From a candidate division WS1 bacterium (lineage in GTDB: Bacteria > Armatimonadota > Zipacnadia > Zipacnadales > UBA11051): a stretch of DNA of 64,000 nt. The stretch lies in the NCBI GenBank assembly GCA_012518355.1, contig JAAYSP010000072.1, forward strand, positions 7,644-71,643, read 5' to 3'. The position numbers and the translations under genes are program-made. The notes under the pieces were generated by a model. That model had not been told where the DNA came from and made no database searches. It saw only the letters and a list, made by a program, of their open reading frames with translations. Of this stretch, positions 3,871 to 34,373 are shown piece by piece; position 1 is the stretch's first letter, and the number at the start of each line of letters is the position of its first letter.

Positions 3871-3900
3871 ACGCTGCTGGGACTATATCTCAGATGGTAC

Positions 3901-8649: not shown

Positions 8650-8701
8650 TTGTCTTTCCTCCTGGATACGCCGGGGCCTTTTCGGCTGCGATGTCACCGC
8701 T

Positions 8702-8743: not shown

Positions 8744-9018
8744 ATCCGCGGTACCACCCTGGTTACTCCCCCCCGAAAAGGAGGAGCCACTTTGCCAACA
8801 CGGGCCACCTGCGGCCGATGTCGTCTTCAGGATAACGGTAGAAGCTCCGACGAAGTCTACTCGGCCGCCTGTTGTCGGCCAGGCCTTTCGATTCGCAGCT
8901 CGAGGGTGATATTCAGATCGGACTTACCTGCCCGCTCTCACCATCCGGGCTCGCTGTCCGGTATAAACCGACCCTACTTGTCCCCTTCACAGCTTTTACG
9001 TGTCACGACTTAAATTGT
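8702..9018 (-). promoter_or_regulatory. T-box riboswitch leader (tRNA-sensing transcription attenuator) upstream of cimA; candidate specifier AUC-A (Ile) at complement 8908-8910 (CUC-G Leu alternative at 8902-8904)
   Basis: Canonical T-box sequence AACCAGGGTGGTACCGCGG (complement 8746-8764) immediately 5' of and overlapping an intrinsic terminator; about 315-nt leader length; amino-acid biosynthesis gene downstream. Confidence 0.75.
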
Positions 9019-11989: not shown

Positions 11990-12176
11990 GTTCGATCGTC
12001 CTCTCACTTGTGCTCATACGGATGAAATGCTTTAATTGCTATAGTCATGGTCTTAAGTCTTGGCCTACAGTCTATGATGTTCTACACATGCACGTCCAGT
12101 CCTAGTTTTGCGGTTATAGTCTACCGAGATACCATGAATTCGAGATGGATGTCTTCCTTTGCGGATGTGATTGCCT

Positions 12177-12584
12177 ATGATGGAGAACGCAGAGCAGCTA
12201 AGCGAAACCGCGGCCATGGACCCAGTGACGAGTCTGTTGTTGGGGTTGATTGCCGTAGTAGTGGGTGTAGTGATCATGTGGTTGGCAGCTATCATCGTCC
12301 ACGTCAGGGATGCCACATTTGGCCGTACTGTGTTCGCTACACTGATGATGTCTGCTCTGACCGTTGGTGCCGTTAGCATGATATCGCGGAGTACAGAAAA
12401 CGCGCTGATAGCAGTGGGGGTGGCAGCGGTAGTCGGTGCGGTGATGGCCATCAAATTGATCTATCGAACAACTGTGTGGAAAGCTGCAGGAGTGCTAATT
12501 CTCAACATCATGATGCAAATCATCATATCTTCCCTGTACATTCAGGCGCGCCTGGGGGGAGCGGTGACATCGGGCCCATCCTAG
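12177..12584 (+). CDS. hypothetical small polytopic membrane protein
   Basis: ORF with 3-4 hydrophobic helices; weak SD; divergent from the lyase gene. Confidence 0.4.
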   Translation: MMENAEQLSETAAMDPVTSLLLGLIAVVVGVVIMWLAAIIVHVRDATFGRTVFATLMMSALTVGAVSMISRSTENALIAVGVAAVVGAVMAIKLIYRTTVWKAAGVLILNIMMQIIISSLYIQARLGGAVTSGPS

Positions 12585-12588
12585 CCGT

Positions 12589-12617
12589 TTGCCGAACTTT
12601 TGCCGGTGTGCTATACT
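12589..12617 (+). promoter_or_regulatory. candidate promoter for rnpA operon: TTGCCG-17-TATACT
   Basis: Hexamers and spacing; starts 5 nt after the upstream ORF stop. Confidence 0.3.
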
Positions 12618-12650
12618 TGTCACTCAACTGACATCGAACGAACGCCAACG

Positions 12651-12998
12651 GTGTGCGTCGTGACCGCAGTCCCCACTATACGTCTCCGCAGAGATTTCCG
12701 GCGCATATTCTCCCGGGGGCGGAGGTTCCACAGCAAGCGGCTTACGATGGTGGTTGCTGCTGCCGAGACTGAGCGAAGCCGGCTGGCGTATGTGGTAAGC
12801 GGCAGGCTCTGCGGTGCGGTCAAACGCAACCGCATTAGACGCAGGCTGCGTGAAGCGGCCCGTCGTCTAATTCCGTGCTGCTCGAGACATTGCGACATAG
12901 TTCTAATCGCTAAATCCGGGGCTGTAGAAGCCGATTATCGCACTCTATATGAGGAATTTGTCTCCCTGCTGTGTGCCGCCAGGCTTCTGAAGAGCTGA
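12651..12998 (+). CDS. rnpA: ribonuclease P protein component
   Basis: RLRRDFRRIFSRGRRFHS ... VKRNRIRRRLREAARR are the RnpA hallmark basic motifs; start uncertain (GTG 12651 or 12660, neither with an SD; ORF-track TTG 12600 would overlap the promoter). Confidence 0.7.
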   Translation: MCVVTAVPTIRLRRDFRRIFSRGRRFHSKRLTMVVAAAETERSRLAYVVSGRLCGAVKRNRIRRRLREAARRLIPCCSRHCDIVLIAKSGAVEADYRTLYEEFVSLLCAARLLKS

Positions 12999-13008
12999 TG
13001 ACGGGGAT

Positions 13009-13290
13009 ATGTTTGCACGATTGACCATCTGCCTCATCCGGCTGTACCAGCGGTCCATATCTCGGCTCATGCCCTCGATGTGCCGGTTTACGCCTTCGTG
13101 TTCGCAGTACTCCATTCGTGCGTTTCAGTTGCACGGCTTCTGGCGAGGGCTGTACCTGACCTGCCTGCGCATAGGGAGATGTAACCCTTTTAATGCGGGC
13201 GGCCATGATCCGGTGCCAGGCGATTCTGAAGTGGCTAACACAGCTTCTCAAACAGATTCTGATCAAAACAAGCTGACGGAGAGACAGTAA
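13009..13290 (+). CDS. yidD: membrane protein insertion efficiency factor YidD
   Basis: CRFTPSCSQYSIRA...GHDPVP matches the DUF37/YidD signature. Confidence 0.85.
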   Translation: MFARLTICLIRLYQRSISRLMPSMCRFTPSCSQYSIRAFQLHGFWRGLYLTCLRIGRCNPFNAGGHDPVPGDSEVANTASQTDSDQNKLTERQ

Positions 13291-13292
13291 AC

Positions 13293-15008
13293 TTGACATA
13301 CATGAGTAGCCGGAGCATCTGGACAGTGGCCCTTCTGCTAATGCTGACATACTGCACGTGTGTCAGCATGGTTGTTGCTGACACGAATACCGATGGTATC
13401 AGCTTCCAGGAAGGGTTGCCCGCCGAACTGGTGATCGACACCAACCTTCCGTTAGACGACCAACTGGGACAGCTCGACGCGATGGTGCGTTGGGGCGAGG
13501 AAAACGAACCCAAGCCGAAAGGCGGGCTACTGTCTGGCATCAAGAAAACGTTTGCTGGTCCTGAAGGACCGACGCCGACAACAGTCAGCGCGCTGCGCGA
13601 CAATCTCGGTGAGATACAGGGCGTCCAGGTGACTATAACCGGCATTTACACTGCCTCTGAGGATGGAGCCAGGGGGATATTGACGACTGCAGAGGGCACT
13701 GTCCCGGTGACCCTTGGCGGCGGCGTACAGCCGGAAGGCTTCGGTGAAAGCCCGCTTGGCGGGGTTCCGGCTGTCGTGGCCGGTCTGGTCGAAGTCGTCA
13801 ACACTCCACCCGAGCCTTCCATTCGCGTTACCAGGCTCACTCCTGCCGGCTGGCTGGCCACCCTGCGCATCGCGCGCATCCACGAGATTCAGGGCGATTT
13901 TAAGTCCGCACAGGCGGCCTACACGCAGGCCGCTGACTCAGCCCACACAGCAGGGGCCCTGTTCAGCGGCTTTGCCACAGTCCGTGCCGCCGAACTGGCT
14001 ATGGAACAACTGGCAGATCCTGCCCAGGCAGAGAAGCTCTACAACAAGGCATGGACCCAATGCGGGACGCTCGATAGCCAGGGGCACTGCGCCTATTTGA
14101 CGTGGCAGCTAAAGGACGGAGTGTGGGAGGAGAAGCCCCTGCGCAACGTAGTGGGGCCGGTGCTCGATAGCCTCAATCGGGAACGCTTCTGGTACCGGGT
14201 TGTTGCAGGCTTCGTAGCACTGGGCGGCAGCAACCCCGGTATCGGTGTCATCCTGCTCGCCTTTGCCGTCCGCCTGATGATTTGGCCATTGACGCGCAAG
14301 CAGCTCGAGTCAGCTCAGTCCATGCAAGCCCTGCAGCCGCAGATGAAGGCACTGCAGGAAAAGTATGTTGACGACAAACAGAAATTCCAGGAGGAATTCT
14401 GGAAGCTGTGTCAGAGCCGGGGCGTCAATCCTCTGGGGGGCTGTCTTCCGATGCTGATCCAGTTCCCCATCCTGATCATGCTGTATCGTGGTATCCGTGC
14501 CTACATCTGGCATTTCGACAACGCATCGTTCCTGTGGATCCACAACCTGGCTGCTCCTGACATGATTCTACTCGTGGCATACACCATAAGCATGATCATG
14601 TTCCAGAAGGCCACACAACGGATGCAACCTGCCGCGGCGATGAATCCTCAGCAAGCGCAGCAGCAGCAGATGATGACCTGGATGATGCCTATCATGTTCT
14701 TCTTTTTCTTCCAGAGTTTCCCTGCCGCCTTCCTGTTGTACTGGCTGTCGAGTAACGTGTTCTACTTTGGCGAGCAGTACGTACACAGAACGATGCGCAG
14801 CAAGTCTGCCGCAACCTGTGACGACGCTGCGGCCGATACGCCCAAGCCTGCGGGTGGATTGGTCTCAGGGATGGTCAAGCTACTATCTCCAGAAGATAAC
14901 TCCGAACAAAAGGAAGCTGAGACACAGCGGACCAGTTACGCGGACCGCAAGGCAGCCGAAGCGGGCAAGAAGGGCCGTAAGATGGACGCCAGGAAGAAAC
15001 GTCGGTAA
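13293..15008 (+). CDS. yidC: membrane protein insertase YidC with large N-terminal extracytoplasmic domain
   Basis: C-terminal 60-kDa insertase core (RLMIWPLTRKQ...GCLPMLIQFPILIMLY); TTG start 13293 (ATG alternative 13302). Confidence 0.85.
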   Translation: MTYMSSRSIWTVALLLMLTYCTCVSMVVADTNTDGISFQEGLPAELVIDTNLPLDDQLGQLDAMVRWGEENEPKPKGGLLSGIKKTFAGPEGPTPTTVSALRDNLGEIQGVQVTITGIYTASEDGARGILTTAEGTVPVTLGGGVQPEGFGESPLGGVPAVVAGLVEVVNTPPEPSIRVTRLTPAGWLATLRIARIHEIQGDFKSAQAAYTQAADSAHTAGALFSGFATVRAAELAMEQLADPAQAEKLYNKAWTQCGTLDSQGHCAYLTWQLKDGVWEEKPLRNVVGPVLDSLNRERFWYRVVAGFVALGGSNPGIGVILLAFAVRLMIWPLTRKQLESAQSMQALQPQMKALQEKYVDDKQKFQEEFWKLCQSRGVNPLGGCLPMLIQFPILIMLYRGIRAYIWHFDNASFLWIHNLAAPDMILLVAYTISMIMFQKATQRMQPAAAMNPQQAQQQQMMTWMMPIMFFFFFQSFPAAFLLYWLSSNVFYFGEQYVHRTMRSKSAATCDDAAADTPKPAGGLVSGMVKLLSPEDNSEQKEAETQRTSYADRKAAEAGKKGRKMDARKKRR

Positions 15009-21692: not shown

Positions 21693-22286
21693 CTATGCGG
21701 CATCTGGCGACTCCAGCGGCTCGGGCTGGGGCAAGATATCCACCGAACCGGCCAGAGTGCCCATGGGGATTTCGTACGAGCGCCCCTCCGAATGGTAACC
21801 AAGTTTTTCCAAAGCCTGTGTACTACACTCTCGTACAAGCGTTGCGGGTGCAACACCCACGGTAGCTGTTGTCCCGGTAATTAGAAGTGGCACGGCCTGC
21901 CGGCTACCTATCTCACCAAGCGTCCATGCTGCGCGTGCGCGGAAAGGTTCGGCCAGGTGGGCGTTTGCCAGGATACGCCCCACATCCTCGACGATGCGGT
22001 TAGACACACTGCGGCCATCTCGTTCGATCTCACGGCCCTTTTTGACTAACGCTACTGCAGCCAGGTCACAGAGTTGGTCGTCCTTTTCGAAGACGTCAAG
22101 CAACTTTTCTATGACCCGTGAATCATCAAGACTAGCCATAGTCTGGATGGCCTGTGTTTTCACCACGACTTCTTGTGATTCGATGTCCCTGCTAAGTTGC
22201 TCCATCGGGTCAATTGCACATCCAGCAATCATCATGACTGCTACCAAACTCAACAGCAACGCTGCACATCGCTGATTGTGCTGCAT
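21693..22286 (-). CDS. HEAT-repeat (PBS lyase-like) lipoprotein
   Basis: Lipobox LLLSLVAVMMIAGC; E/Z-type HEAT repeats; ATG at 22286 after a GGAGGA SD. Confidence 0.65.
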   Translation of the reverse strand: MQHNQRCAALLLSLVAVMMIAGCAIDPMEQLSRDIESQEVVVKTQAIQTMASLDDSRVIEKLLDVFEKDDQLCDLAAVALVKKGREIERDGRSVSNRIVEDVGRILANAHLAEPFRARAAWTLGEIGSRQAVPLLITGTTATVGVAPATLVRECSTQALEKLGYHSEGRSYEIPMGTLAGSVDILPQPEPLESPDAA

Positions 22287-22358
22287 GTATCTTCCTCCGC
22301 ATGACATATAGGCAATATGACAACATTGGCGGTTAGTGTTCCGCCATTTTTGCGGCAA

Positions 22359-23327
22359 TCAAACATCCAACAATCCAAGATTGCTACGAGCTTCTTTTGC
22401 AGCCTCACGAACCCAAAAGTGAGTGTCTTCCTCGGCAGAAGCCAGTGCCTGCGCTACCCTGGACTGGATCGCTTCGGGTACGATGCTAACTTTCCCCAAG
22501 GACTGCATCGCGGCGATGCGGACATCACCAACACTATCGCCGCATGCGAGAAGCATACCTTCAAGTGCTGTGAGTTGCTCGCTTTCCTTTTCATTTCTAG
22601 CAGCCAAATCACCGAGAGCATACACCGCGGCCACACGCACTGATGGAGCTATTTCTACGGCCTCGTCAACGGCCTGAGCCAGGCCTTCTACAGCCTCCGA
22701 CGACTGCAGGTAGCCGAGAGCCACTGCTGCGGCCAATCGCAGTGTCTGAGTTGTATCCTCTACCTCAGCCGGTGCTTCGTCCGCCTCTTCATCAGATATC
22801 GCGGGAGCAGGTACTGGTGGACGGGCGGCAAGTACTGCAAGCAACGGGATGGTTGCCTCTGCCGCCTCAAATGTACCTAAAGTGGTCGCGGCCCCTTCAC
22901 GCACTAGCAGGTCTTCCTGCTCATCTGACAGTACTGTTATCAATGTCGGTATTGCCTGTTTTGCACCAAGTCTGCCCAGTGCAAGTGTCACGTCTTTTCG
23001 GACGTACTCATCTTTATCGTTCTGGAGCAGCGGTGTCAACAGTTGTCCATGTTCAGGGCCGCCACACATCGCGATGAGCATGACGGCATTAGAGCGCACC
23101 AGGGGGTTAGCGTTGGTCAGCAGCGTCTCAACCATGGATACAACCCGCTCACCCTGGCCCGACAGAGCCTCGATGGCGCGGGTAGCCGCTGCGGTATCGT
23201 CTCCATCGAGAGCCTGTACGTGCTCTCGTATCTTGGCTGCACCCTGGTAAGTTGTGACGGCATAGACTCCGCCTAACACGATAATCAGGACCGCAATTGC
23301 TGTTATACTTCGCGTGTTCACTGGCAA
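22359..23327 (-). CDS. HEAT-repeat (PBS lyase-like) protein with N-terminal TM anchor and acidic linker
   Basis: Repeated LGxLG/AVxALG motifs; TTG start; 72-bp gap to the downstream lipoprotein gene. Confidence 0.7.
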   Translation of the reverse strand: MPVNTRSITAIAVLIIVLGGVYAVTTYQGAAKIREHVQALDGDDTAAATRAIEALSGQGERVVSMVETLLTNANPLVRSNAVMLIAMCGGPEHGQLLTPLLQNDKDEYVRKDVTLALGRLGAKQAIPTLITVLSDEQEDLLVREGAATTLGTFEAAEATIPLLAVLAARPPVPAPAISDEEADEAPAEVEDTTQTLRLAAAVALGYLQSSEAVEGLAQAVDEAVEIAPSVRVAAVYALGDLAARNEKESEQLTALEGMLLACGDSVGDVRIAAMQSLGKVSIVPEAIQSRVAQALASAEEDTHFWVREAAKEARSNLGLLDV

Positions 23328-23400
23328 TCAATCCTTGCTTAGGCCGGGCCGACGTATAGTAGCGCCCGAGTTCGGAATCCGTATGGTAGACTACAAACGA

Positions 23401-26028
23401 CTATCTCTTCTGGGTGCGAATACGCTCAGTCAACTGTTCGGCACGGGCTGCTTTTGCCGGGTCAGGTTTCTCCTGCTCGTGCATATGCTTGATGGCCTTC
23501 AGCGACCTATCGTCCCCTATACACTGCATGCTGATAGCCAGCCACATGCGGTAGTCGGCATCCTGCGTGCGATTACGAGTGTCTAGCACTGCCTCGGTAG
23601 CCTGACGCCCGATGCCCCCAATGGTGGCGGCTATCCACGGCTTGAGGCTATCGGATACTTTATCGAGTTCTTCCATCAGTGTTTTGACGGGGCCACTGCC
23701 CATCATAGACAGCGCGATCGCAGCCTGCATGCGTATATCTTCACCGCTACCAGGCTCTGTCAGGATTTCCACGAGCAACTTGCCGGCAGGTGACAGTTCG
23801 GATGAGACTTGCTGCTCCATTTCTTCCTGACTGGATTTCATCCCAATAAGCGCCACTGACTGGGCGGCACCGGCAGCAAATTCTCCGCCGGCCTTCAGGA
23901 GAGCACCTAGGACAGGGATCCCCTCTGCGTGTCCGATCCGGCCGAGACCTCGAATTGCATAGTGACGAACCGATGGCGAGGCTGTCTCGTCGCCGGCGGC
24001 AGCAGTCAACAGCTGGGCGACACTCCCCCGGATCCGGTCGTCAAATTGTGTTTCTCGGACTCCACCGATAGCAGTCTCGGCTGTCTGAACGGTCGATTCG
24101 CTTTCGAACACCAAAGATATCGCAGCGCGGTACTTCAAGTCGGTATCGGCACTGTCGAGCAATTTGGCTAGCTCATCGCGTGGGTGTCCAGACCGCCAGT
24201 TGGCGAGGGCATCCATTGCCATATCTCGAACTGCAGGCGAGGATGACTGCAGGGCCTTGACAAGCAACTCTACACCATCGGCGGAGGCGATCTTGCTGAC
24301 TGCCTTGACGACAGCTATGGCCAGGCCAGGCTGCACGTCGGTGTAGACAGATTTGAGAGTGGTGATGGCTTGTGGGTTACGTGTGTGTCCAAGGGCTGCC
24401 ACTGCAGCGACACGTGTAGGCACCGGTTCAGCGCTATTGCCTGCAAGCTCAGTCAACTGCGCGAGTGCATCCGTACCTAGCGCGCCGAGAGCGATAGCGG
24501 CCCAGTCAGCTTTGGTCGGATTAGTCGGCGCCTGCTTGAGCGCGTTGATCAGAGCGGGAATTGCCGGCTTACCAATTCGCACCAGTGCCTGTTCCGCCAT
24601 ATGAGCGACACGTTCATCGGTACTGCCCAAAGCTTCAGTGAGCACCGGGACCGCAGCTGGACCACACTTGGCCAGTGCATCACGGGCGGCGTAGTACACC
24701 CGCCAGTCACCATCGTGCAGAGCGCGGGCTAACGGCGCAGCGATTACGGCGGCATGGGAAGAGAGGTTGTGTCCGCTTTGTGCTCTCAGCGCTTCTGCTG
24801 CTGCCCGGCGTACTGCCGCGTCAGCGGCTCCCAGTGCCTGAGCAAGGGGCGGGACAGGGGTGGAGCCGGCAACGTTGGAAAGGGCGCGGATTGCTAGTAG
24901 TTGCGCTTCGCTCTGTCCGCTAGCGATTACTGTAGCAAGAGCCGGTACGGCAGCAGGGCCAAGTCTCTCAAGAGCGCTGACCAACTGGCTGGATATACCA
25001 GCGCGGCTATGGAGCAGGGCATGGGTCAGCGGACCAGCAGCGGCTGGATCGCCCAGTCTACCCAGTGCTTCGGCCACAGCGCCACGGACCTCGGAGTGCT
25101 GCCCGGTATCCTGCAAAGTGGCAATCAGCGGGCCAGCAGCTCCGTTTACACGGCCCACTTCGCCGAGACGTCCCAGGCTGAGTGCAGCCTGACGTCGGAC
25201 GGCATAGCTTCCGTCATTGCGAAGCCGGTCCAGCAACGGTGGCAACACCTGTAGCGCGCCCTCCTCACCTATCGGAGAAGCAACAGTCTGGTCGGCTATA
25301 ACGCCTAATAGAGACGTCCCCACGCCTCGAATGTCGGTGTTTGGCGATGTCAGCAGTTCAGTGATGATGGCAGGAATGGCTATGGCATTCATGGCCCTGA
25401 GAGCTGCTTGAGCGGCGGCCCGCTCACGCAAGTAGGCGTCAGCGTCCTGATCACCGCTTGGGCCTGTCTTCTGGATCACTGTGATGACGGCAGCCCGCGC
25501 AGGCTCCCCAATACCTCCAAGAATCGCACTTGCGCCAGCCCTGGCGAAATCATCCCACGCCGACAGGACGGGGAGAAGATAAGGAACCGCCGGCTCTCCG
25601 ATTGCGATCAGCACGGGATTCACTCCAGCACGGGTGTTCGCATCCTTGTCCTTGAGCGCTTCGATCAAGGTAAAGATGGCCGAATTGCCGGCTTGTGTGA
25701 GAATTTCGGTGATGCGCGCTTGAACCGGGGCATCAACGAATTTGAAAACCGTGAGCAGTTGATGCCATGCCTGGGGCGTGCTTATCTGTGCCGCGGCGGC
25801 TATCGCACGATCTTGCACCCAACGGGGCTGGTCCTTGATTGCCTCTGCTAGCGTGCGACTACGTATAAGCTCATCTACGGCACGAACCTGCTGGGTGGGC
25901 GTGCCGGTGGCCAGTTGTTCCTGTAGCCTGGCCATCCGTTGGCTTCGGCCGACCCCCCACACGAGAAGACAGGCGAGGGCGCCGATGATGATTACCCAGT
26001 TAATCTGCCGCCGGGTGCTTTCGTCCAC
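23401..26028 (-). CDS. large HEAT-repeat (PBS lyase-like) protein with N-terminal TM anchor (about 875 aa, more than 20 repeats)
   Basis: Pervasive AxxALGxxG repeats; GTG start at 26028 placed 9 nt after a GAGGAG SD (the ORF-track TTG at 26037 abuts the SD). Confidence 0.75.
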   Translation of the reverse strand: MDESTRRQINWVIIIGALACLLVWGVGRSQRMARLQEQLATGTPTQQVRAVDELIRSRTLAEAIKDQPRWVQDRAIAAAAQISTPQAWHQLLTVFKFVDAPVQARITEILTQAGNSAIFTLIEALKDKDANTRAGVNPVLIAIGEPAVPYLLPVLSAWDDFARAGASAILGGIGEPARAAVITVIQKTGPSGDQDADAYLRERAAAQAALRAMNAIAIPAIITELLTSPNTDIRGVGTSLLGVIADQTVASPIGEEGALQVLPPLLDRLRNDGSYAVRRQAALSLGRLGEVGRVNGAAGPLIATLQDTGQHSEVRGAVAEALGRLGDPAAAGPLTHALLHSRAGISSQLVSALERLGPAAVPALATVIASGQSEAQLLAIRALSNVAGSTPVPPLAQALGAADAAVRRAAAEALRAQSGHNLSSHAAVIAAPLARALHDGDWRVYYAARDALAKCGPAAVPVLTEALGSTDERVAHMAEQALVRIGKPAIPALINALKQAPTNPTKADWAAIALGALGTDALAQLTELAGNSAEPVPTRVAAVAALGHTRNPQAITTLKSVYTDVQPGLAIAVVKAVSKIASADGVELLVKALQSSSPAVRDMAMDALANWRSGHPRDELAKLLDSADTDLKYRAAISLVFESESTVQTAETAIGGVRETQFDDRIRGSVAQLLTAAAGDETASPSVRHYAIRGLGRIGHAEGIPVLGALLKAGGEFAAGAAQSVALIGMKSSQEEMEQQVSSELSPAGKLLVEILTEPGSGEDIRMQAAIALSMMGSGPVKTLMEELDKVSDSLKPWIAATIGGIGRQATEAVLDTRNRTQDADYRMWLAISMQCIGDDRSLKAIKHMHEQEKPDPAKAARAEQLTERIRTQKR

Positions 26029-27335
26029 TGATGTCAACTCCTCAGAAGCAGCGGAGCGCCCCGGCCTATCCGGGGCCTCCCAATAGTGCCGATCATAGAC
26101 TTACGCGTGAACTGGATTACTCTTCCAGCCACCTAATCGTGCAATTCCGCAACGACGCGCCGGAATCCTTCTCCGTTTTGCGCCGTATACCTTCTCCTGA
26201 ATCAGAAAATCCCAAAAAGCAAAAACAGTAGATCACCTGACCGTCTCACCGGCTATCACGGACTGTCGAAGGCTGGCGCCATTATATGCTCTCACGGGCC
26301 TGCTGACAAGAGTGTCTGTCATAATTGCCAGGGTGGAACTGGCGATGAGGCATCTCCAGACCGGGTCACAAGTGAGCCAGTAGCGTTCTTCACAACAATC
26401 AACGCTATCCGACAATGCTCTGCTAACACGCCATCACCTGATGGTGTCGACGGACGCCCGAGCACTGTTTCTTCCAACACTGCTTCAACGCAGAATTCCC
26501 AAAAGCAGCGCGCCTGGCGCGCCTCACGGGCCATTTGTTGGCGAGTAGCGTAAAATCTACTGCATCGCGAAAGGGTGCTTTGCTGATGCCATCGCAAAAT
26601 CTGCGCATATACTGCTACAGCTACTGCGTATATAGGATATACGGTAGATATATCGTAGGCACCAGCCGGGGGATAGCCACGAAGCGCCTTACCGGGGCGC
26701 AATGACGGGAGCCCACTATCCGGAGGCTGCGCCGATCATCTGCCTCTGTGAGAATACAACTGAAAATAGTTGGCAGTAGTGGCTAATGCTTACTTGGATA
26801 GCGCTATTTGTGTTACAATTGAGCGACAGTTCGGGCACTTGTGTCCTACAGCACGGATCGTCTTTGTGCTGTCCATGCTCGGCAAGATGCTTACCGCCGG
26901 CCCGGCTCCTGCTACGGCCTAGACTCTGGGCGATTGTACTGAACTCTATAGTGTTCTTGCACAGGTCGCCAAAACCATAGAGAGTGTGGGGCAATCGTAG
27001 CTAGAACCGGGCCTGTGTTGTGAAGTAGTGTGCTAGATATGTTGAGTGCCCAACAGAATAAGCCAGCACCAATACGCCTGACCTGATGGCCATCAGCAGC
27101 CTGTTCGACAGCAGATGTTATCGCTGTTACCAGTTACCAGGAGCACGCAGCAACTTTTTCTGATGACAGGTGAAGTCGGATCTGAACCGACAGCAATTGG
27201 CAATTGTACCTGGTGCGATAACTGGTTGGGCAACTGATTGATTTATTTATGAGTATCGACACTGAACAGCATACACGCCACAAAACCCGCACGAGTTCCA
27301 TTCACCGGCGCAACCGCCTGATGAGGGAGCACAGC

Positions 27336-28355
27336 ATGAACCATCACCGGCCGTTGACCGACCGCGCATCGTCATACACAAGACAGGCATTTGCCATTGC
27401 CATACTGTTGGTGGTGAGCGCATTGACTGGCTGTCGACCCACGGATGCTGTAGGCCGTTCACGCTCCGATGCTGACCACAATGACAGCACTAAAGGGGAC
27501 GCATTCAAAGCTCTAGGCCTACAACAGCTTGAAGCGGGCAACTACAATGATGCCTATGTTGCCTTCAAACACGCCGCAGCGTTGACAGGTGATGATTACG
27601 ATATTGCGTGGGGAATGGCTCAGGTCAACTCGAAGCTCGGTGATGACATCGAAGCATTAGACTGGATCAACCAGGCCTTGTCCCTACAGCCGGAGTCTGC
27701 CGAAGTGTTGGAGTTGAAGGGTCGGACGCTGTTGCGACTGGCCCGTTTCACGGAAGCGATAGGCGTACTGGAACGCACCGTACAGACACATCCAGACAAC
27801 ACAGTGGCGTGGCTAAATCTATCGGCGGCCTATGATGCTACCAAGCAGCCCGATAAATCCATGGACGCTGCCCGCTCTGCGATCACGAGTGCACCGGATG
27901 CACCTATCCCCTATTTTGCCATGGGCGACATATACCTGCAACGGGAGCAACTTGCCGAGGCCGAAAAGCAGTATCGTCTTGCGCTCGAAAAAGATTCCGC
28001 CCACGCGGCATCATATCTGCGACTGGCAGCACTGTACATCCGGCAAAACAAGGATCTTGACCAGGCCCGTACATGGGCAATTAAATCTGAAGAGCTCGAT
28101 CCGGGCGATGGCAGCGCCGCATCTGCCGCCGCATGGGTTCTCTTTTTGCAGGATAGGAAGGTCGAAGCCGTCAAGGAAATGGCCAAGACCGCCGAAGCGC
28201 ACCCTCAGAATTACCACATTTGGATGCGGCTGGGACACATTTTGGACGACATGGGCGATAAAGAAATGGCGCAACAGGCCTTTGACACAGGAGCCAGGTT
28301 TGCCCCGCGCGGGGTTAGAAGTGCGGTAGCCGATGACAAACAAGACAGCCAATAG
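27336..28355 (+). CDS. TPR-repeat lipoprotein
   Basis: Lipobox LLVVSALTGC; multiple TPR units; ATG at 27336 after a GAGGGAG SD. Confidence 0.7.
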   Translation: MNHHRPLTDRASSYTRQAFAIAILLVVSALTGCRPTDAVGRSRSDADHNDSTKGDAFKALGLQQLEAGNYNDAYVAFKHAAALTGDDYDIAWGMAQVNSKLGDDIEALDWINQALSLQPESAEVLELKGRTLLRLARFTEAIGVLERTVQTHPDNTVAWLNLSAAYDATKQPDKSMDAARSAITSAPDAPIPYFAMGDIYLQREQLAEAEKQYRLALEKDSAHAASYLRLAALYIRQNKDLDQARTWAIKSEELDPGDGSAASAAAWVLFLQDRKVEAVKEMAKTAEAHPQNYHIWMRLGHILDDMGDKEMAQQAFDTGARFAPRGVRSAVADDKQDSQ

Positions 28356-28368
28356 AGGAGTAGAGGCG

Positions 28369-29340
28369 ATGAACCTTCGGTATTTGAGCCGATCCGACGT
28401 AGAAGACCTGAATATATCCATGAGCCAAATCATCTCTGTTGTCGAAGAAGGCTTCCGCCTGAAGGGCCTGGGCAAGGTGCAGATGCCACCCAAGATTGCT
28501 GTCAAGTCGCGCGGCCCCGAGAGCTTCCTACACGCCATGCCTGCATACGTCGGTGGCCTGGACATTGCGGCCATCAAATGGGTTGGCGGCAACGATGACA
28601 ACCCCGATCGGGGTTTGCCGACCATCAGCGGTCTTATCGTGCTCAACGACCCTGAGACCATGTTCCCCGTGTGTGTCATGGATGCCATCTGGGTGACTGC
28701 AGTGCGCACCGGAGCAGCCAACGCTGTAGCAATGAAATATCTGGGCCCTGCGCAAGCAAAGACGGTGTCAATTGTCGGTTGTGGCGTGCAGGGCCGGAGC
28801 AATCTGCTGGCGATGGCAACCATTTATCCGGAAATCACTGAAGCACGTTGCTTTGATGTGAATCCAGATGCACTGGAACGCTTCGTCAGAGAAAGCCGAG
28901 ATGCGTACAACTTTCAGATCACGCCCGCTGCAAGTCCTCGGGAGGCTGTTGAGGAGGCTGATGTTGTGGTCACTGCCGGGCCCAGCCCCAAAGAGCCCAC
29001 ACCGTACCTGTCGGAAGAGTGGCTCAAACGCGGTGCTATGGCCGCTCCCGTCGATTACATGGGAGCATGGGAAGGGCCCATGGCATCCAGCGTGGACCGG
29101 CTCATCACCGACGATCATGGCCAGATGGAGTACTATAGAAGCAAAGGCTACTTCCGCGATGTCCCACGCCCCTATGCAGACCTGGGTGAAATAGTCGCCG
29201 GCGTCAAACCGGGTCGCCAGAATCCGGACGAACGGACTATGTCAATTCTGCTGGGCATAGCTCTGGATGATGCAGTCACCGCCAATCTAATCCATCAGCG
29301 GGCCATCGAGGAAAATATCGGGACGCTTCTACCGCTGTAG
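28369..29340 (+). CDS. ornithine cyclodeaminase/mu-crystallin family protein
   Basis: Rossmann GCGVQG motif and OCD-family N-terminal region; GAGGAG SD 8 nt upstream. Confidence 0.8.
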   Translation: MNLRYLSRSDVEDLNISMSQIISVVEEGFRLKGLGKVQMPPKIAVKSRGPESFLHAMPAYVGGLDIAAIKWVGGNDDNPDRGLPTISGLIVLNDPETMFPVCVMDAIWVTAVRTGAANAVAMKYLGPAQAKTVSIVGCGVQGRSNLLAMATIYPEITEARCFDVNPDALERFVRESRDAYNFQITPAASPREAVEEADVVVTAGPSPKEPTPYLSEEWLKRGAMAAPVDYMGAWEGPMASSVDRLITDDHGQMEYYRSKGYFRDVPRPYADLGEIVAGVKPGRQNPDERTMSILLGIALDDAVTANLIHQRAIEENIGTLLPL

Positions 29341-29461
29341 TGTCACGAGCTCTGGGATAAGTTTAGTCTCTGTAGACCCCGGCTTGGATGTGTAGCTGGA
29401 ATGTGTAGCGATTCGGCTGCAGCGCTGCAACGAATGTGCCTAGCAAGGGAGGCCTGACACG

Positions 29462-30832
29462 ATGTGCACAGATGCCCGTGTAAGAATTGCGGAACTCGAA
29501 TTAGAGCTGCAAGAGCGGGATACTCACATGGAAGCGATACGCCGCATAAGTGCGGCGCTGTGCCAGGTCACGAAAGTTGATGAACTGGTCCGCCGCGCTC
29601 TGGACACCTCGCTGCAGGTGGTAAGCGCTGATGCCGGATCCGTAATCCTGTATGATCCGGACAAAGACAAGCTGATATTCGAGTATGTGGTGGGTGGTGC
29701 TGCTGACATCCTCACGGGTACGGAATTGAGCCCCAATCAGGGCATAGCGGGTGCAGTCTTCCAGAGCGGTGAGATTGATGTAAGCGAAGATGTGACCACT
29801 CGCGACAAACATGATCGGGCCGTAGGAGAGAAGGTACACTACGTGACCAAAAACATGGTCACAGTGCCGCTTCTTAGTGCCGGAGGTAAGCGGTTTGGCG
29901 TCATGCAAGTGCTAAACAAAACTGATGGCACGTTCAAAGACAGGGACGTAGCGTTGCTAGACACTCTCGCCTCGCAAATCGCTACTGCGCTGGAGACAGC
30001 TCGACTTCACGAAGAGGCGCGGCTAGCCGAGGTCATACGCTTCATCGGCAACCTCAGCCATGACGTTAAGAACATGATGACACCGGTGCAGACCGCCGCC
30101 GAGACGCTCGAATTGATTGCATCAGACACATGGAGCGATTTCGACACCGCCGTGTCAACGCTGCCGGATCGAGATGAAGTGGCCGACACCATCGAAGGGT
30201 TGCGACAACTGCTCCCCGAGATGACCGAGATGATGAAAAACGGCTCTGAGGCCGTGCAGGGCCGGATGGCAGAGGTCTCAGCCGCTGTAAAAGGCATGGT
30301 CACCGAGCCTGATTTCCATCTCGAACACATCCGCACCGTAGTAGATCAGGTAGTGCCGATGTTGGCGGTGGTGGCCAAAAAAGAGCATATCACCATCCAA
30401 ACCGACATTCCGGACGACATAAAACCGGCGATAATGGACGCCAAGCAGATGTATAACGCAGTGTACAACCTGGTGAACAACGCCCTACAGGCCTGTCCTC
30501 CTGATGCCACCATCACGGTGCGTTGCCGCAGCGAGATAAATGGCAGCTTCCCTGATGGCGGTTATCTGGAGGTAGCTGTGCAGGACACCGGCGAGGGGAT
30601 GCCCGAGGAAGTCCGCCACAAGCTTTTCACTGATGACGCCATCAGTACCAAACCGATGGGGACCGGACTTGGGACGAAAATCGTGAAAAACGTGGTAGAT
30701 GTCCACGGAGGGACCGTCTGGGTCGAAAGCACTCTGGGACAGGGCACCACCATCACGCTCCGCATTCCCATCGAAGGCTCCTCTGAAGCGCGTGATCGCA
30801 TGGCAAAGAACAGACAGCAGGAGGAGCAGTGA
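29462..30832 (+). CDS. cytoplasmic GAF-domain sensor histidine kinase (no cognate response regulator adjacent)
   Basis: GAF region; H-box LSHDVKNMMTP; HATPase_c N, G1 and G2 boxes (NLVNNALQA, DTGEGM, GTGLGT). Confidence 0.85.
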   Translation: MCTDARVRIAELELELQERDTHMEAIRRISAALCQVTKVDELVRRALDTSLQVVSADAGSVILYDPDKDKLIFEYVVGGAADILTGTELSPNQGIAGAVFQSGEIDVSEDVTTRDKHDRAVGEKVHYVTKNMVTVPLLSAGGKRFGVMQVLNKTDGTFKDRDVALLDTLASQIATALETARLHEEARLAEVIRFIGNLSHDVKNMMTPVQTAAETLELIASDTWSDFDTAVSTLPDRDEVADTIEGLRQLLPEMTEMMKNGSEAVQGRMAEVSAAVKGMVTEPDFHLEHIRTVVDQVVPMLAVVAKKEHITIQTDIPDDIKPAIMDAKQMYNAVYNLVNNALQACPPDATITVRCRSEINGSFPDGGYLEVAVQDTGEGMPEEVRHKLFTDDAISTKPMGTGLGTKIVKNVVDVHGGTVWVESTLGQGTTITLRIPIEGSSEARDRMAKNRQQEEQ

Positions 30833-30836
30833 GCGG

Positions 30837-32006
30837 ATGAATTTCGTCTTCTATAACCCAACACGCCTCGTGTTCGGCGATGGGAGATTTCATGAATTGA
30901 GCGAACTGGCCGCCGGCCTGGGCAACCGCGCACTGCTGGTGACGGGGCGTTCGGCCATGCAGAAAACCGGGCATCTGGACAATGCGGTGGAGATGCTTGA
31001 GCAAGCCGGAGCGAGAGTCACCGTGTTCGATCACATACCACCTAACCCCACGCTTGAGGCTATCGAGGACGGCGGACGCCTCGCTCGCGAGACAGACTGT
31101 GATTTCATCGTCGGTCTGGGTGGGGGCAGTGCTATGGACAGCGCCAAGGCCATTGCCGTGGCGGCAACACATGACTGCAACCTGCGCGAATTCCTGCTAC
31201 CCGGAGAAAACGGCGTCAAACGCCAACCTACTGATGACACTTTGCCCGTAATTGCTATCACCTCAACCGCCGGCACCTCTTCCGAACTGACGCCATTCGC
31301 AGTTATCACCATGTCTGACACCTGCGAGAAGTCAGCCATGGGTGGTCCGGCACTGTATCCGCATGTGGCCATCGCGGATCCGCAACTGACCCGGAGTCTG
31401 CCGCCACGGATTACCGCTTCGACCGGTATGGATGTGATGTGCCATGCTCTGGAAGGCTACGTGTCTACTGTTGCAAACCCGATAACGGACGTGCTGGCAC
31501 TGCATGCAATTGAACTCGTGGCGCTCCATCTCCCCCATGCAGTGGCTGACGGCGGTGATGAAGATGCTCGCCGTGGCATGATGCTGGCCAACTGCCTTGC
31601 CGGATACGTGCTCTCACAAAACGGCACCAACCTGATGCACGCACTGGAGCACCCCATGAGTGGCCGATACCCTGACTTGCCTCATGGGGAGGGCCTCTGT
31701 GCCGTACTGTCTGCCTGGGCAGAGCTTATGGCAGAGCGTCAGCCCGACCGCCTTGCAGCGGTGGCTCGGCGGATAGGAGTACAGGAGGCTGACGATGTAC
31801 GGGCGGCTGCTCACACTGCGGAAGCGTTGAGCCAACTGCTCGCACAGGTGGGGATGGATTTGTGCCTGAACCAGTTGGGCGTCGAACCACACATGCTGGA
31901 CACGCTCGCAGATGACGCCCTGCGGTACATGCACCATGCACTTGCTAAAACACCGGGGCAGGTGACGCGCGAGCATCTCACCGACATACTGCAAGCGAGT
32001 TACTAG
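30837..32006 (+). CDS. iron-containing alcohol dehydrogenase family protein
   Basis: GGGSAMDSAKAIA motif and metal-binding His cluster; start 4 nt after the HK stop with a GGAGGAG SD. Confidence 0.85.
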   Translation: MNFVFYNPTRLVFGDGRFHELSELAAGLGNRALLVTGRSAMQKTGHLDNAVEMLEQAGARVTVFDHIPPNPTLEAIEDGGRLARETDCDFIVGLGGGSAMDSAKAIAVAATHDCNLREFLLPGENGVKRQPTDDTLPVIAITSTAGTSSELTPFAVITMSDTCEKSAMGGPALYPHVAIADPQLTRSLPPRITASTGMDVMCHALEGYVSTVANPITDVLALHAIELVALHLPHAVADGGDEDARRGMMLANCLAGYVLSQNGTNLMHALEHPMSGRYPDLPHGEGLCAVLSAWAELMAERQPDRLAAVARRIGVQEADDVRAAAHTAEALSQLLAQVGMDLCLNQLGVEPHMLDTLADDALRYMHHALAKTPGQVTREHLTDILQASY

Positions 32007-32028
32007 CCTTTTTTCGAGGCTGCGCAAA

Positions 32029-32868
32029 ATGACTTCCGCTCCACTGCAACGCTGGACAATCGCCAGGCCTGCTGAGCTCTCCGGATTGGGCGTGCGCACC
32101 GGCAGACACATCACAGTGCGTTTTTTGCCCGCAGAGGCCTACAGTGGTATCACTGTAACGCGCACAGACCTGGATATGACGTGGCCTGTGGATCTAGATC
32201 ATGCCCTTGATGTGCCCAATAGCACCTGCATCGGCGACCACAGCGGCATGGTCGCTTTCGTCGAGCATGTGTTAGCTGCATTGTGGGCTGCAGCCATCAG
32301 CGATGCGCAAATCGTGGTGGATGGGCCAGAGATACCGCTGCTCGACGGCAGTGCGCTACCGTGGTATGGTGCGGTGACTGCCGCCGGGCGCAGGCAACTC
32401 GACGGCGAGTGGACACCGTTGAAGTTAACCGAACCGGTTTTTGTGCTGGGAGACAACACAGCGCTGATCGCGTTGCCAGCGGAACGGCTCCGGCTCAGCT
32501 ATGCACTGCTGCACAGTCATCACATGATAGGCCATCAGTTCGCACACTTTGACGCCGAATGTGACAGCTTCGCCGATGACCTGGCACCGGCTCGAACTTT
32601 TGCCACCGGAGCGGAGCTGGAGCAACTGCAGCAGGCGGGGTTGATAGTTGCAGGCAGTGAAGAGAACTGCCTGATCGTCTATGATGACCGATATTCGTCT
32701 GCGCTTTTTGCAGGCAATGCCATGGCCCGGCATAAATTGGTGGACATGGCCGGAGACTTGTACTTGCTCGGGCGTCGCGTACATGCCCATGTGCTGGGAT
32801 ACCGGACAGGGCACACGGACAATCGTGCTCTGGCCCACCGCATCGCCGAGCAACAGCAGGCGCCCTGA
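32029..32868 (+). CDS. lpxC: LpxC-family deacetylase (UDP-3-O-acyl-N-acetylglucosamine deacetylase-like)
   Basis: Catalytic EH (FVEHVLAAL), HKxxD zinc site (ARHKLVDMAGDL) and the C-terminal His (GYRTGHTDN) are all conserved relative to E. coli LpxC. Confidence 0.75.
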   Translation: MTSAPLQRWTIARPAELSGLGVRTGRHITVRFLPAEAYSGITVTRTDLDMTWPVDLDHALDVPNSTCIGDHSGMVAFVEHVLAALWAAAISDAQIVVDGPEIPLLDGSALPWYGAVTAAGRRQLDGEWTPLKLTEPVFVLGDNTALIALPAERLRLSYALLHSHHMIGHQFAHFDAECDSFADDLAPARTFATGAELEQLQQAGLIVAGSEENCLIVYDDRYSSALFAGNAMARHKLVDMAGDLYLLGRRVHAHVLGYRTGHTDNRALAHRIAEQQQAP

Positions 32869-32931
32869 CGAGAGATTTCACGCAAACTGCACTCAATTTG
32901 AGCAGCATAACACAGCACTGGAGGACAAATT

Positions 32932-34194
32932 ATGGCTGAAGAACTAGCGATTAATGGTGGGCCCAGGACTGCCGAGGAAAGCTTTCCGAGTACCGGAAAT
33001 GCCAGTGGCAGAGATCTGGGTGAAGAGGAAATCGCTCTTGTAAGCGAAGTCATCCGCAGTGGCAGGATGTTCCGTTACAGTGGGAGCATGGTGGGGCAAT
33101 TCGAAAAAGAGTACGCTGAATATCTTGGCATCGAGTATGTTTTGGCCGTCACCTCTGGCACCGCCTCACTTCACACTGCAGTGGCGGCACTGGAATTGAA
33201 TCCCGGCGACGAGATCATCACCAGCCCCATCAGCGACATGGGTACCTACATCGGCATTGTGCAGTCTTGCTGCATCCCGATCTTCGCCGATTGCGACCCT
33301 CTGACGCTGAACATGAATCCGGAGTCTATCGAGAAACAGATCACGGACCGCACCCGCGCCATACTCGTGGTTCATCTATTCGGGCAGCCTTGCCGGATGG
33401 ACGAGATCATGGATATCGCCAAGCGTCATGACCTCTACGTCATAGAAGACTGCGCTCAGGCTCACGGGGCCACCTATGATGGGCAACAGGTCGGCACTTT
33501 CGGCGATATAGGCTGCTTCTCACTGCAGCAGAGCAAACAGATTACAGCCGGTGATGGCGGCATCATCGCGACTGCCAGGGAAGAGTTCCATGCGCGCGCA
33601 CGAGATTTCCATGACAAGTACTACGACCGCACGGGGCGCAGCCAGGACCGCAGTGGCGTGGCCCGCATCGGCATCAACTATCGCATGAACGAAGTCACCG
33701 GAGCGGTGGCGCTGGCTCAAACCCGCAAACTTAAGAGTATCCTCGAGCGGCGACGGGCATCCGCAGAACGGCTCGTCGAGTTGATCGAGCAGATCGACGG
33801 CATCAATGGCCCACATATATACCCCAATACCACTGACCACTCCTGGTGGCGCTTCACATTCAGCATAGACCAGGAAGCACTCGGTGTGGACAATGAAACC
33901 TTCGCCAAAGCCATCCGCGCTGAGGGCTTGCCATTCGGACTGGGCTATGTGGGCAATCTGATGGTCGGTACCAAATGCCTCGTCGACCACGTAGCATATG
34001 GCGACTCGAAGTTCCCCTGGGAACCTCCGTACGGACGCGATCCGGAGTATGATGAAGCCGACTATCCCGGTGCAGCATGGGGCGAGTCGAACCTGTTTAC
34101 TCATGCCTGGACAGAGGGCCACACGGTAGAGCACGCCGAGCTGATTGCACAGGGGCTCCGAAAGGTCGCCGACTACTACCGCTCTAAAAAATAG
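32932..34194 (+). CDS. DegT/DnrJ/EryC1/StrS-family PLP-dependent sugar aminotransferase
   Basis: PLP lysine motif SLQQSKQITAGDGG; family architecture. Confidence 0.85.
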   Translation: MAEELAINGGPRTAEESFPSTGNASGRDLGEEEIALVSEVIRSGRMFRYSGSMVGQFEKEYAEYLGIEYVLAVTSGTASLHTAVAALELNPGDEIITSPISDMGTYIGIVQSCCIPIFADCDPLTLNMNPESIEKQITDRTRAILVVHLFGQPCRMDEIMDIAKRHDLYVIEDCAQAHGATYDGQQVGTFGDIGCFSLQQSKQITAGDGGIIATAREEFHARARDFHDKYYDRTGRSQDRSGVARIGINYRMNEVTGAVALAQTRKLKSILERRRASAERLVELIEQIDGINGPHIYPNTTDHSWWRFTFSIDQEALGVDNETFAKAIRAEGLPFGLGYVGNLMVGTKCLVDHVAYGDSKFPWEPPYGRDPEYDEADYPGAAWGESNLFTHAWTEGHTVEHAELIAQGLRKVADYYRSKK

Positions 34195-34373
34195 TTTCGT
34201 TTTGTCTATACGGTATGCGCATCTGTGTCCTGCAGGCGTGGCGCTCATAGCCACGCCTGCAGAGGCGTGTGCCATTTGAAGGCATTTTCGGGATGACGAC
34301 GAAATATATATCTAGGGCACTAATACAGAGCACTAGTGCAAGCGATTATCAGAAATTGTAGAGGAAATCAACT

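Follow-up and report, generated by a model that had tools for sequence, protein, structure and literature searches.

In the 64-kb window, i.e., the whole stretch of DNA that was analyzed, the longest segment without genes separates the start of the HEAT operon, which is read leftward, from the start of a TPR gene, which is read rightward together with OCD (Table 1). Another ORF-poor segment of 1.3 kb (12007-13293) contains rnpA and yidD. The earlier note on this DNA had described the HEAT-TPR gap as gene-free, with short overlapping ORFs only, and this description holds. It had also placed a drop in GC content, to about 48%, at 26100-26400; the computed value for this interval is 52.2%. The gap as a whole (52.9%) has a lower GC content than the window (56.0%) and the HEAT gene (59.9%), and the minimum per 100-nt window, 42%, is found at 26751-26850.

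Table 1. Features of the HEAT-TPR gap and its borders. Positions are those of the window.
Feature	Position	Strand	Description
HEAT gene start	26028	minus	GTG; RBS GAGGAG at 26038-26043
Gene-free gap	26029-27335		1307 nt, between HEAT gene start and TPR start
HEAT promoter and leader part of the gap	26029-26309	minus
Shine-Dalgarno (SD) sequence, first HEAT gene	26038-26043	minus	GAGGAG, 9 nt before GTG 26028
7-bp G+C hairpin	26058-26076	minus	mRNA GCCCCGG-AUAGG-CCGGGGC, ~15 nt upstream of RBS
Conserved core of HEAT leader	26143-26215	minus	Pyrimidine box and three purine boxes
Purine box 3	26143-26148	minus	GGAATT
Purine box 2	26167-26174	minus	GGAGAAGG
Purine box 1	26190-26197	minus	GGAGAAGG
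Pyrimidine box	26203-26215	minus	Anti-SD-like
Predicted HEAT operon promoter, sigma-70-type	26281-26309	minus	TTGTCA-N17-TATAAT
Middle spacer	26310-26788	none	~480 nt, without sign of constraint
9-nt tandem duplication	26508-26525		GCGCGCCTG then GCGCGCCTC; window-specific
AT-rich variable short tandem repeat	26605-26659		TATAC repeat
Decayed addA 3' end (whole)	26789-27335	plus
Conserved island	26789-26819	plus	CTTACTT-N16-TGTTACAAT; relic of AddA codons for TYLxTPTYATI
Extended -10 promoter-like site in island	26811-26812, 26814-26819	plus	TG (26811-26812), TACAAT (26814-26819)
Decayed addA 3' end and old addA-TPR spacer	26820-27335	plus	Presumed ~510-nt TPR-OCD operon leader
Rod-like imperfect palindrome	26899-27013	none	115 nt; 18-nt outer arms 26899-26916 and 26996-27013
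Second relic island	27206-27217	plus	GTACCTGGTGCG; matches AddA C-terminal TWCxxC motif
TPR start	27336	plus	ATG; RBS GAGGGAG at 27323-27329

The gap is non-coding. Substitutions show no 3-periodicity in any part of it (all p > 0.2); in the flanks, codon periodicity is evident in both the HEAT gene (p 6e-13) and the TPR gene (p 1e-7). Indels that distinguish the gaps of relatives have lengths that are not multiples of three, and a Pfam search with the two longest gap ORFs gave no match. These comparisons covered three distinct lineages for the whole gap, i.e., the window lineage and two related lineages designated B and C, and nine lineages for the HEAT leader. A scan of genome contigs for further relatives returned one distant TPR protein only, and additional protein searches yielded generic HEAT repeats or no match. 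About 700 nt could not be aligned between strains whose sequences immediately downstream of the gap are 95-98% identical. The HEAT-to-TPR alleles are strongly divergent among otherwise near-identical strains.

The left end of the gap carries a sigma-70-type promoter sequence that matches 11 of the 12 consensus positions and is the single match to this pattern within the 64 kb (0 expected). The two hexamers recur without a change in 9/9 HEAT lineages, with a varying spacer sequence between them, a spacing of 17 (18) nt and a position 245-330 nt ahead of the start codon. In its near-consensus hexamers, a spacing within 16-18 nt and a location that is kept in relatives, this element resembles a typical sigma-70 promoter. 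Transcription is predicted to start near 26274 on the minus strand, which would give the HEAT mRNA a leader of approximately 245 nt.

The order and spacing of the leader boxes are alike in all nine lineages. The purine boxes are located 21-26 nt apart, and the sequence shared by boxes 1 and 2 is found just four times in the 64 kb. The SD sequence lies within a 20-nt block, GAGGAGTTGACATCAGTGGA, which is almost invariant across lineages; it is exact or nearly so, although the HEAT proteins are just 56-63% identical. A 7-bp GC hairpin (GCCCCGG/CCTAT/CCGGGGC), which had been noticed earlier, is indeed present at the position shown in Table 1. It is kept in four lineages, i.e., the window lineage, B, C (in a slightly shifted register) and L020, and only on the HEAT-sense strand does the change in L020 yield a G-U pair. 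With regard to structure, the leader has a folding z of -1.1, and RNAalifold on eight leaders returned only a 5-bp hairpin (5 pairs, consensus energy -1.8 kcal/mol). No covariation-supported conserved structure was detected in the leader among eight to nine lineages, and a helix between the pyrimidine box and purine box 2 was no better than shuffled or slid controls. Judged by its conservation across lineages, the HEAT promoter with its ~245-nt leader is under purifying selection, and the leader would most likely tune how the HEAT operon mRNA is translated or how stable it is. Thus, the earlier proposal of a long 5' UTR or regulatory region for this operon applies to the left 281 nt (the promoter and the ~245-nt leader, in nine lineages) and does not extend to the remainder of the gap.

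The middle spacer is different in character. Its identity between the window lineage and lineage C is 60-73%, vs. 66-69% at HEAT four-fold sites, i.e., its rate of divergence is close to that of synonymous sites in the adjoining HEAT gene. It has no codon periodicity and no homology with the region upstream of addB in L020, and searches of these 480 nt for traces of a 334-aa gene, addB or the rest of addA gave noise only. Two repeat features had been reported here in the earlier note. The first, read as a GGCGCGCC-T-GGCGCGCC double palindrome, is actually AGCGCGCC-T-GGCGCGCC, a tandem 9-mer that is single-copy in both related lineages. The second, an AT-rich block, is present; what appeared to be nested inverted repeats in it are degenerate tandem repeats with a period of 9-15. 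Its copy number varies between close relatives (a 15-nt indel), and the block is absent in lineage C. Both features are lineage-specific, unlike the hairpin near the HEAT start, and slippage in unconstrained sequence may have created the 9-nt duplication as well as the variable TATAC repeat.

Evidence on the origin of the gap was provided by gene order in relatives. In L027/L028, the order is HEAT (minus strand), a 334-aa gene, addB, addA, TPR, OCD, GAF kinase, Fe-ADH, LpxC and DegT, and the flanks are identical in gene content to those of the window. The distance between the HEAT and TPR starts is 8386 nt in these loci vs. 1307 nt in the window. Partial versions of this arrangement occur in L024 (HEAT / 329 aa / addB), L020 (HEAT / addB), L016 (HEAT / 328 aa / TPR), and L019, L025 and L026 (addA then TPR). 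In L020, the apparent absence of genes over 4 kb upstream of HEAT was an artefact, as addB runs off the end of that locus. As L027/L028 still have the 334-aa gene along with addB and addA between these flanks, the window lineage appears to have lost the three genes.

The right part of the gap retains a trace of this loss. In nhmmer searches with a gap profile, the addA 3' end was the sole match (E 8.5e-5 and 6e-6), and the reverse comparison, L013 against lineage C, matched over 212 nt (E 9.9e-5). No match in the window was obtained with a DNA profile of four addA lineages, and single-sequence and gap-profile searches alone matched; protein-profile matches to addA were weak but collinear, and individually not significant (E 0.1-4). 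The distance from the conserved island to the TPR start is 547 nt both in the window and in L013/L027, in which addA is intact. Ungapped, in-register identity between the window and L013 was 32.9%, vs. 25.1 +/- 1.7% for shifted controls (maximum 29.4%, n = 120), and alignments without the island gave z = 2.0-4.6 in five of the six lineage pairs (0.9 in B vs. L013). The segment therefore combines an intact syntenic gene in relatives, collinear residual similarity (for the addA tail only) and lost coding constraint, and it is a pseudogene relic. Of the earlier idea that the gap is a decayed gene, this much remains: the right ~550 nt derive from the addA 3' end and show a faint collinear trace (nhmmer E 6e-6 to 1e-4), without a clear frameshifted blastx match.

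Within this relic, the island at its head is nearly identical in the window lineage, B and C, and its surroundings are 51-61% identical and unalignable. It looks like an extended -10 promoter with a poor -35 element (TTACTT), and the TGnTAnAAT motif is kept in four addA-coding lineages (L013, L019, L026 and L025). In lineages that still code for AddA, protein constraint alone could explain the conservation of the island, except in L025, which keeps TGnTAnAAT although its peptide differs at this place.

These data allowed us to propose a history of the locus. The ancestral order would have been the HEAT operon leftward and the 334-aa gene, addB, addA, TPR and OCD rightward, and the window lineage and its relatives B and C would have been left with neither the 334-aa gene nor addB and with only the tail of addA. 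This tail, the last ~550 nt, no longer codes for protein, and an internal extended -10 promoter (TGTTACAAT, with the motif itself at 26811-26819) may drive the TPR-OCD operon. Such a promoter is our proposed reason for the retention of the addA tail; with the promoter at its head, the dead tail would serve as a long TPR-OCD leader. Overall, we consider it likely that gene loss left the gap behind as a composite non-coding spacer, in which the HEAT promoter and leader and the addA tail have been retained. Substitution-saturated lineages still have a gap of ~1.2-1.3 kb, whereas deletional bias on useless DNA predicts otherwise, and therefore a further function of the spacer or of the long TPR leader is possible. 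A bolder reading, which we regard as conceivable but doubtful, is that the HEAT leader, at about 26029-26280 on the minus strand, represents an undescribed translational-control leader and that, in addition, the addA tail was recruited as a long 5' UTR of TPR or a source of sRNA. The pyrimidine box, the regularly spaced SD-like boxes and the RBS/start block are kept in at least nine Armatimonadota-like lineages, and recruitment of the addA tail, if true, would account for a length that is kept despite sequence turnover.

Other explanations of the gap were also considered. The 328-334-aa gene, divergent from the HEAT operon, sits at exactly this position in L016/L017, L021, L024 and L027, and the middle 480 nt have no other explanation, which speaks for a plain pseudogene of this gene as the gap or its middle. 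However, tblastn and a three-sequence protein profile revealed no trace of it in the window, B or C (best E-values > 1, with matches that were not collinear), nhmmer found no remnant, and we think this origin unlikely. Mobile DNA could have contributed to the length of the gap in the form of the 115-nt palindrome, which resembles a MITE/REP-like remnant in that its 18-nt inverted arms flank 79 nt and either strand folds strongly, and which is confined to the window and B lineages. Folding z-scores of -4.6 and -4.3 were obtained for the window; the value rises to -2.9 in B, -1.1 in C and +1.7 in the coding homologue, and the palindrome itself is absent in the latter two. Dispersed copies would be expected of MITE/REP elements, but it is single-copy within the 64 kb; searches of the gap against plasmid and phage collections gave no match, and the alignment with lineage C continues across the region without a corresponding gap. 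In a non-systematic inspection, no target-site duplication was noticed. The island-to-TPR distance is the same as in the lineage with intact addA, and a net insertion is therefore disfavored. A contribution of mobile DNA is thus rather improbable.

The same palindrome is an argument for a large structured noncoding RNA (a ribozyme, an OLE/ROOL/GOLLD-like RNA or a long riboswitch-type leader) that would fill much of the gap, since it folds far better than shuffled sequence; the region is also long and gene-free, and its length is kept in diverged lineages. Nevertheless, sliding 150-nt folds are ordinary throughout the gap except for this lineage-specific hairpin, and no Rfam match was found in the gaps of the window and five related loci, either with gathering thresholds or with a cutoff relaxed to E 10. 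ARAGORN found no tRNA in the gap. Together with the poor alignability between close strains described above, these results make the structured RNA suggested in the earlier note very unlikely. Small proteins missed by an ORF-length filter were considered as well. Although ORFs of 30-127 aa occur on both strands of the gap, and in the relatives L003 and L004 a gene caller had placed a 168-aa ORF there, this ORF maps to three different window frames, indels disrupt every longer frame, and we found neither codon periodicity, nor a Pfam match, nor an upstream ORF common to the nine HEAT leaders; we give little credence to this explanation. Finally, a replication origin or site-specific recombination site, also raised earlier, would fit with the genes that diverge from the gap, the AT-rich repeat block and palindromes, and the cumulative GC skew, which at 200-nt resolution reaches a local minimum at ~26400-26600. 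At 2-kb resolution, however, the skew tracks gene orientation, and the minimum for the whole 64-kb window is elsewhere. DnaA boxes (TTATCCACA-like, <=1 mismatch) number 0 in the gap and 14 in the rest of the window, close relatives either lack the AT-rich repeats or have them in a different length, and the same interval in L027 is filled with genes. We therefore consider such a site extremely improbable.

A composite spacer of this kind has precedents. In Buchnera, intergenic spacers contain decaying pseudogenes beside retained regulatory elements (Degnan, Ochman and Moran 2011, PMC3164680), and pseudogene decay in bacteria in general has been described (PMC2916853, PMC522871). As in these spacers, an intact gene occurs at the same place in a relative of the window, a faint collinear trace is all that is left of it, coding constraint is gone, and small conserved islands (promoters and ribosome-binding regions) are embedded in unconstrained sequence. 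Unlike Buchnera, the host genome is of a free-living, gene-dense type, probably from Armatimonadota, rather than that of a reduced symbiont, and the relic was apparently kept for the promoter of the downstream operon. In this respect it resembles promoters internal to an upstream gene: a TGnTAnAAT element is located ~510-550 nt upstream of TPR inside addA in four lineages, and this candidate element survives in the window after addA decay. Compared with established internal promoters, the window element has a poor -35 and a predicted activity.

The HEAT side is similar to divergent sigma-70 regions with long 5' leaders in its near-consensus -35 and -10 elements and 17-nt spacer in every lineage, and in a leader with conserved boxes and a small hairpin. 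It differs from known leader families in having no Rfam match or demonstrable conserved fold, and its start site is a predicted one. Leaders of the CsrA/RsmA type (glgC, pgaA and hag) carry GGA motifs in several copies, including one within the Shine-Dalgarno sequence. Likewise, the HEAT leader has two to three GGA-containing purine boxes, (A/G)GAGAAGG, with the same 21-26-nt spacing upstream of the SD sequence, and the latter also contains GGA. In predicted folds, box 2 lies in an AAGGA hairpin loop in the window lineage, B and C only; the remaining lineages fold otherwise. The HEAT boxes are, however, longer and more uniform than CsrA sites and are accompanied by the anti-SD-like pyrimidine box.

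The gap is thus an ordinary one. It holds neither a novel RNA gene nor an origin or a mobile element and is the scar that remained when the 334-aa gene and the recombination genes addAB were lost, and with this a conspicuous gene-free stretch is explained away. As a small example, the scar would show how part of a dead gene may persist as a leader by virtue of an internal promoter. To those who work on these organisms, both the local loss of addAB and the strong divergence of the HEAT-to-TPR alleles may be of interest. The one item of the gap that is worth follow-up is the conserved HEAT leader: its repeated GGAGAAGG boxes make it a candidate post-transcriptional control element in a phylum that has received little study.

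The gap between the leftward HEAT operon and the rightward TPR-OCD operon (positions 26029-27335; 1307 nt) is flanked by two divergent genes and, as the earlier note described, is a genuine 1.3-kb gene-free stretch with only short, overlapping ORFs. Its GC content is 52.9%, versus 56.0% for the window, with a minimum of 42% per 100 nt at 26751-26850; the value of about 48% previously given for 26100-26400 was too low (52.2% measured). The window's other ORF-poor stretch of like size (12007-13293) carries rnpA and yidD, and the gap is thus its one real gene-free kilobase. The surroundings of that other stretch (12171-15008) comprise a 137-aa membrane-like ORF, rnpA (12600-12998), yidD (13009-13290) and a 571-aa ORF (13293-15008), which we take to be a candidate yidC from its rnpA-yidD context.

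Related loci (L numbers) were gathered via the proteins of the two flanking genes, TPR and HEAT. The gap is covered in full by just three distinct lineages, namely the window, lineage B (L002, plus L003, L004 and L022, which are equivalent to one another; ~89% nucleotide identity) and lineage C (L005-L011); those further away have one or both flanks in common with the window. When the window was compared with B or C, the HEAT and TPR genes showed strong third-position periodicity of substitutions (p = 6e-13 and 1e-7, respectively), which was absent from every segment of the gap (all p > 0.2). Indels of 1, 2 and 4 nt in the relatives' alignment break every longer frame, a 168-aa ORF called in B falls on three different window frames, and the gap's two longest ORFs have no Pfam match. 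An ATG at 27249 was rejected as the TPR start because in relatives the protein starts where 27336 lies, and in B a 1-nt indel falls between the two ATGs. In L002, a Logan contig, the large HEAT gene (2021-4647) is called in two pieces (737 and 120 aa), probably owing to a frameshift or assembly error, and the leader has one extra T relative to L003.

Features of the gap and its borders (window positions)
Feature	Position	Strand	Details
First HEAT-repeat gene	start GTG 26028; RBS GAGGAG 26038-26043	minus	left flank
RBS/start block			HEAT leader; GAGGAGTTGACATCAGTGGA; nearly invariant across lineages
Hairpin	26058-26076		HEAT leader; common to closer lineages
Purine boxes	26143-26148, 26167-26174, 26190-26197		(A/G)GAGAAGG; three, 21-26 nt apart
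Pyrimidine box			HEAT leader; AAAUYCCUYUUU across lineages, GGGAUUUUCU in the window
HEAT promoter	26309-26281	minus	TTGTCA-N17-TATAAT; 11/12 consensus matches
Core island	26789-26819		CTTACTTGGATAGCGCTATTTGTGTTACAAT; corresponds to AddA codons for TYLxTPTYATI
Rod-like palindrome	26899-27013		115 nt; the gap's one strong fold
Second small island	27206-27217		matches AddA C-terminal TWCxxC region, at similar distance from TPR
TPR lipoprotein gene	start ATG 27336; RBS GAGGGAG 27323-27329	plus	right flank

An ancestral gene order was predicted from partial loci, namely HEAT / 329 aa / addB in L024 (whose homologue is labelled Armatimonadota at NCBI, making this the probable phylum), HEAT / addB in L020, HEAT / 328 aa / TPR in L016, and addB-addA-TPR in L013, L019, L025 and L026. 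It was borne out by the longer flank of L027/L028, which carries HEAT (minus), a 334-aa gene, addB (1106 aa), addA (1219 aa) and TPR, followed by OCD, GAF kinase, Fe-ADH, LpxC and DegT; the flanks match the window, and the HEAT and TPR starts lie 8386 nt apart. This order on the same flanks implies that ~7 kb was lost in the window, B and C. Since the closest outgroup by HEAT identity (L020, 76%) retains addB, the loss postdates the split from it; an apparent ~4-kb ORF-free region in that locus (1-3200) proved to be an artefact, in that ORF listing omits frames cut off by the locus end, as addB is here; by tblastn this addB is uninterrupted. The 328-334-aa protein, which has no Pfam domain and is missing in the window, is well conserved (69% identity between L016 and L021) and always divergent from the HEAT operon (L016 4893-5879; L021 2626-3627; L024 2653-3642; L027 1940-2944). 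A 1-nt deletion in L014/L027 (~5555; L027 ~9555; metagenome JGI 3300017989) shortens addA to 1150 aa, the sister assembly L013/L028 having the full 1219-aa gene; the deletion either reflects a sequencing error or marks the onset of addA decay in the lineage still carrying it.

The right part of the gap (26789-27335) is probably a relic of addA. Outside the HEAT leader, a profile of the gap built from the window, B and C matched one place in the related loci, the addA 3' end of L013/L027 (E = 8.5e-5 and 6e-6), and the reverse search of L013 against lineage C gave E = 9.9e-5 over 212 nt. The distance from the core island to the TPR start codon is 547 nt in the window and L013 alike; over it, in-register ungapped identity is 32.9%, versus 25.1 +/- 1.7% (maximum 29.4%) in 120 shifted registers. 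With the core removed, global alignments exceeded shuffles in 5 of 6 lineage pairs (z = 2.0-4.6; for B vs L013 z was only 0.9), and none of 300 shuffles reached the C vs L013 score. Protein-level evidence is weaker than that from DNA: AddA profile matches are each insignificant, yet collinear, with frame shifts between them.

The core island is nearly identical between the window and C, whereas its surroundings (51-61%) are effectively unalignable. Situated in the lowest-GC region of the gap and preceded by an A-rich stretch, it resembles an extended -10 promoter (TG-n-TACAAT) with a poor -35 element. Four lineages in which this sequence remains part of coding addA also keep TGnTAnAAT; among them is L025, where the peptide has changed to YDRI. 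A plus-strand promoter scan of 26700-27335 found no site closer upstream of TPR, and inspection of the alignment by eye revealed no candidate TPR promoter conserved in lineage C. As judged from sequence, a promoter internal to addA may drive the TPR-OCD operon, which would give a TPR leader of ~510 nt, and the addA tail would have been retained because it holds this promoter.

At the other end, the HEAT promoter match is unique in the window, with none expected by chance. Both hexamers are exact in 9/9 HEAT lineages, 245-330 nt upstream of the start, while the spacer sequence varies. Within the leader, the previously noted hairpin is as described; in L020 its pairing is saved only by a G-U pair on the HEAT-sense strand. 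Two of the four copies of GGAGAAGG in the 64 kb lie in this leader. Folding of the leader gave a z-score of -1.1, and RNAalifold on the leaders of eight lineages yielded a 5-bp hairpin (-1.8 kcal/mol). A helix between the pyrimidine box and purine box 2, suggested by three single-sequence folds, did not outperform shuffled or slid controls, as is to be expected when a pyrimidine tract is set against a purine tract. With no conserved fold found, conservation is at the sequence level; by analogy, the boxes look like SD/anti-SD mimics or protein-binding sites (CsrA-like).

The proposal of a HEAT 5' UTR or regulatory region holds for the left part of the gap, with its conserved promoter and leader, and not for the rest; that of a decayed gene suits the right part, on the DNA-level addA matches, and not the middle (26310-26788), where neither the 334-aa gene nor addB or addA could be traced. 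We treat the middle as unconstrained filler: its identity between the window and C (60-73%) is about that of four-fold degenerate sites in the adjoining HEAT gene (66-69%). The supposed double palindrome in it is a tandem 9-mer (26508-26525), and the AT-rich block (26605-26659), though present, is a degenerate short tandem repeat rather than nested inverted repeats; both are lineage-specific slippage products. A large structured RNA is not supported, as Rfam searches at curated and permissive thresholds gave no gap match in the window or five related loci; ARAGORN found no tRNA or tmRNA in the gap. The rod-like palindrome folds well (z = -4.6 on one strand and -4.3 on the other; 0/200 shuffles as good). 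In B the fold is less pronounced (z = -2.9), and both C (z = -1.1) and the coding homologue (z = +1.7) lack it; within the window the palindrome is single-copy. It is recent and lineage-specific, a candidate chance palindrome, processing site or small insertion. Nor is an origin supported: the gap has no DnaA boxes with up to one mismatch, and GC skew at the 2-kb scale tracks gene orientation. Plasmid and phage collections had no match to the gap.

Elsewhere in the window lie a T-box leader (8729-8999, minus; Rfam 103.8 bits) upstream of a 539-aa gene (7078-8697), a five-tRNA cluster (1904-2372; Leu-GAG, Val-CAC, Gly-CCC, Gly-GCC, Cys-GCA) and a lone tRNA-Asp (51913-51991). Four DnaA-box-like 9-mers (TTTTCCACA three times, TTGTCCACA once) occur within 180 nt (57998-58180), at the 5' end of and just upstream of a RecD2-like helicase gene (55739-58084).

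Downstream of TPR, from ~28300 to 34335, the window and lineage C (L005) are 95-98% identical, whereas identity falls to 64-92% (250-nt blocks) in the HEAT operon and to 74% in TPR, and the right half of the gap is unalignable. Low identity beside a near-identical flank marks HEAT-gap-TPR (21700-28350) as a divergent-allele island, either recombined or fast-evolving, between strains that are otherwise almost identical, and the addAB deletion, common to both alleles, must be old. The gap length of ~1.2-1.3 kb nevertheless persists in both, which is the main observation that gene loss does not predict; on its account we allow that the leaders might have an unrecognised function, although we consider this unlikely. 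General background on such gene-loss spacers is available (PMC3164680). Overall, the gap is probably a scar of gene loss, made up of two predicted promoters, a leader that is deeply conserved and the tail of a dead gene: a finding that is real but ordinary.
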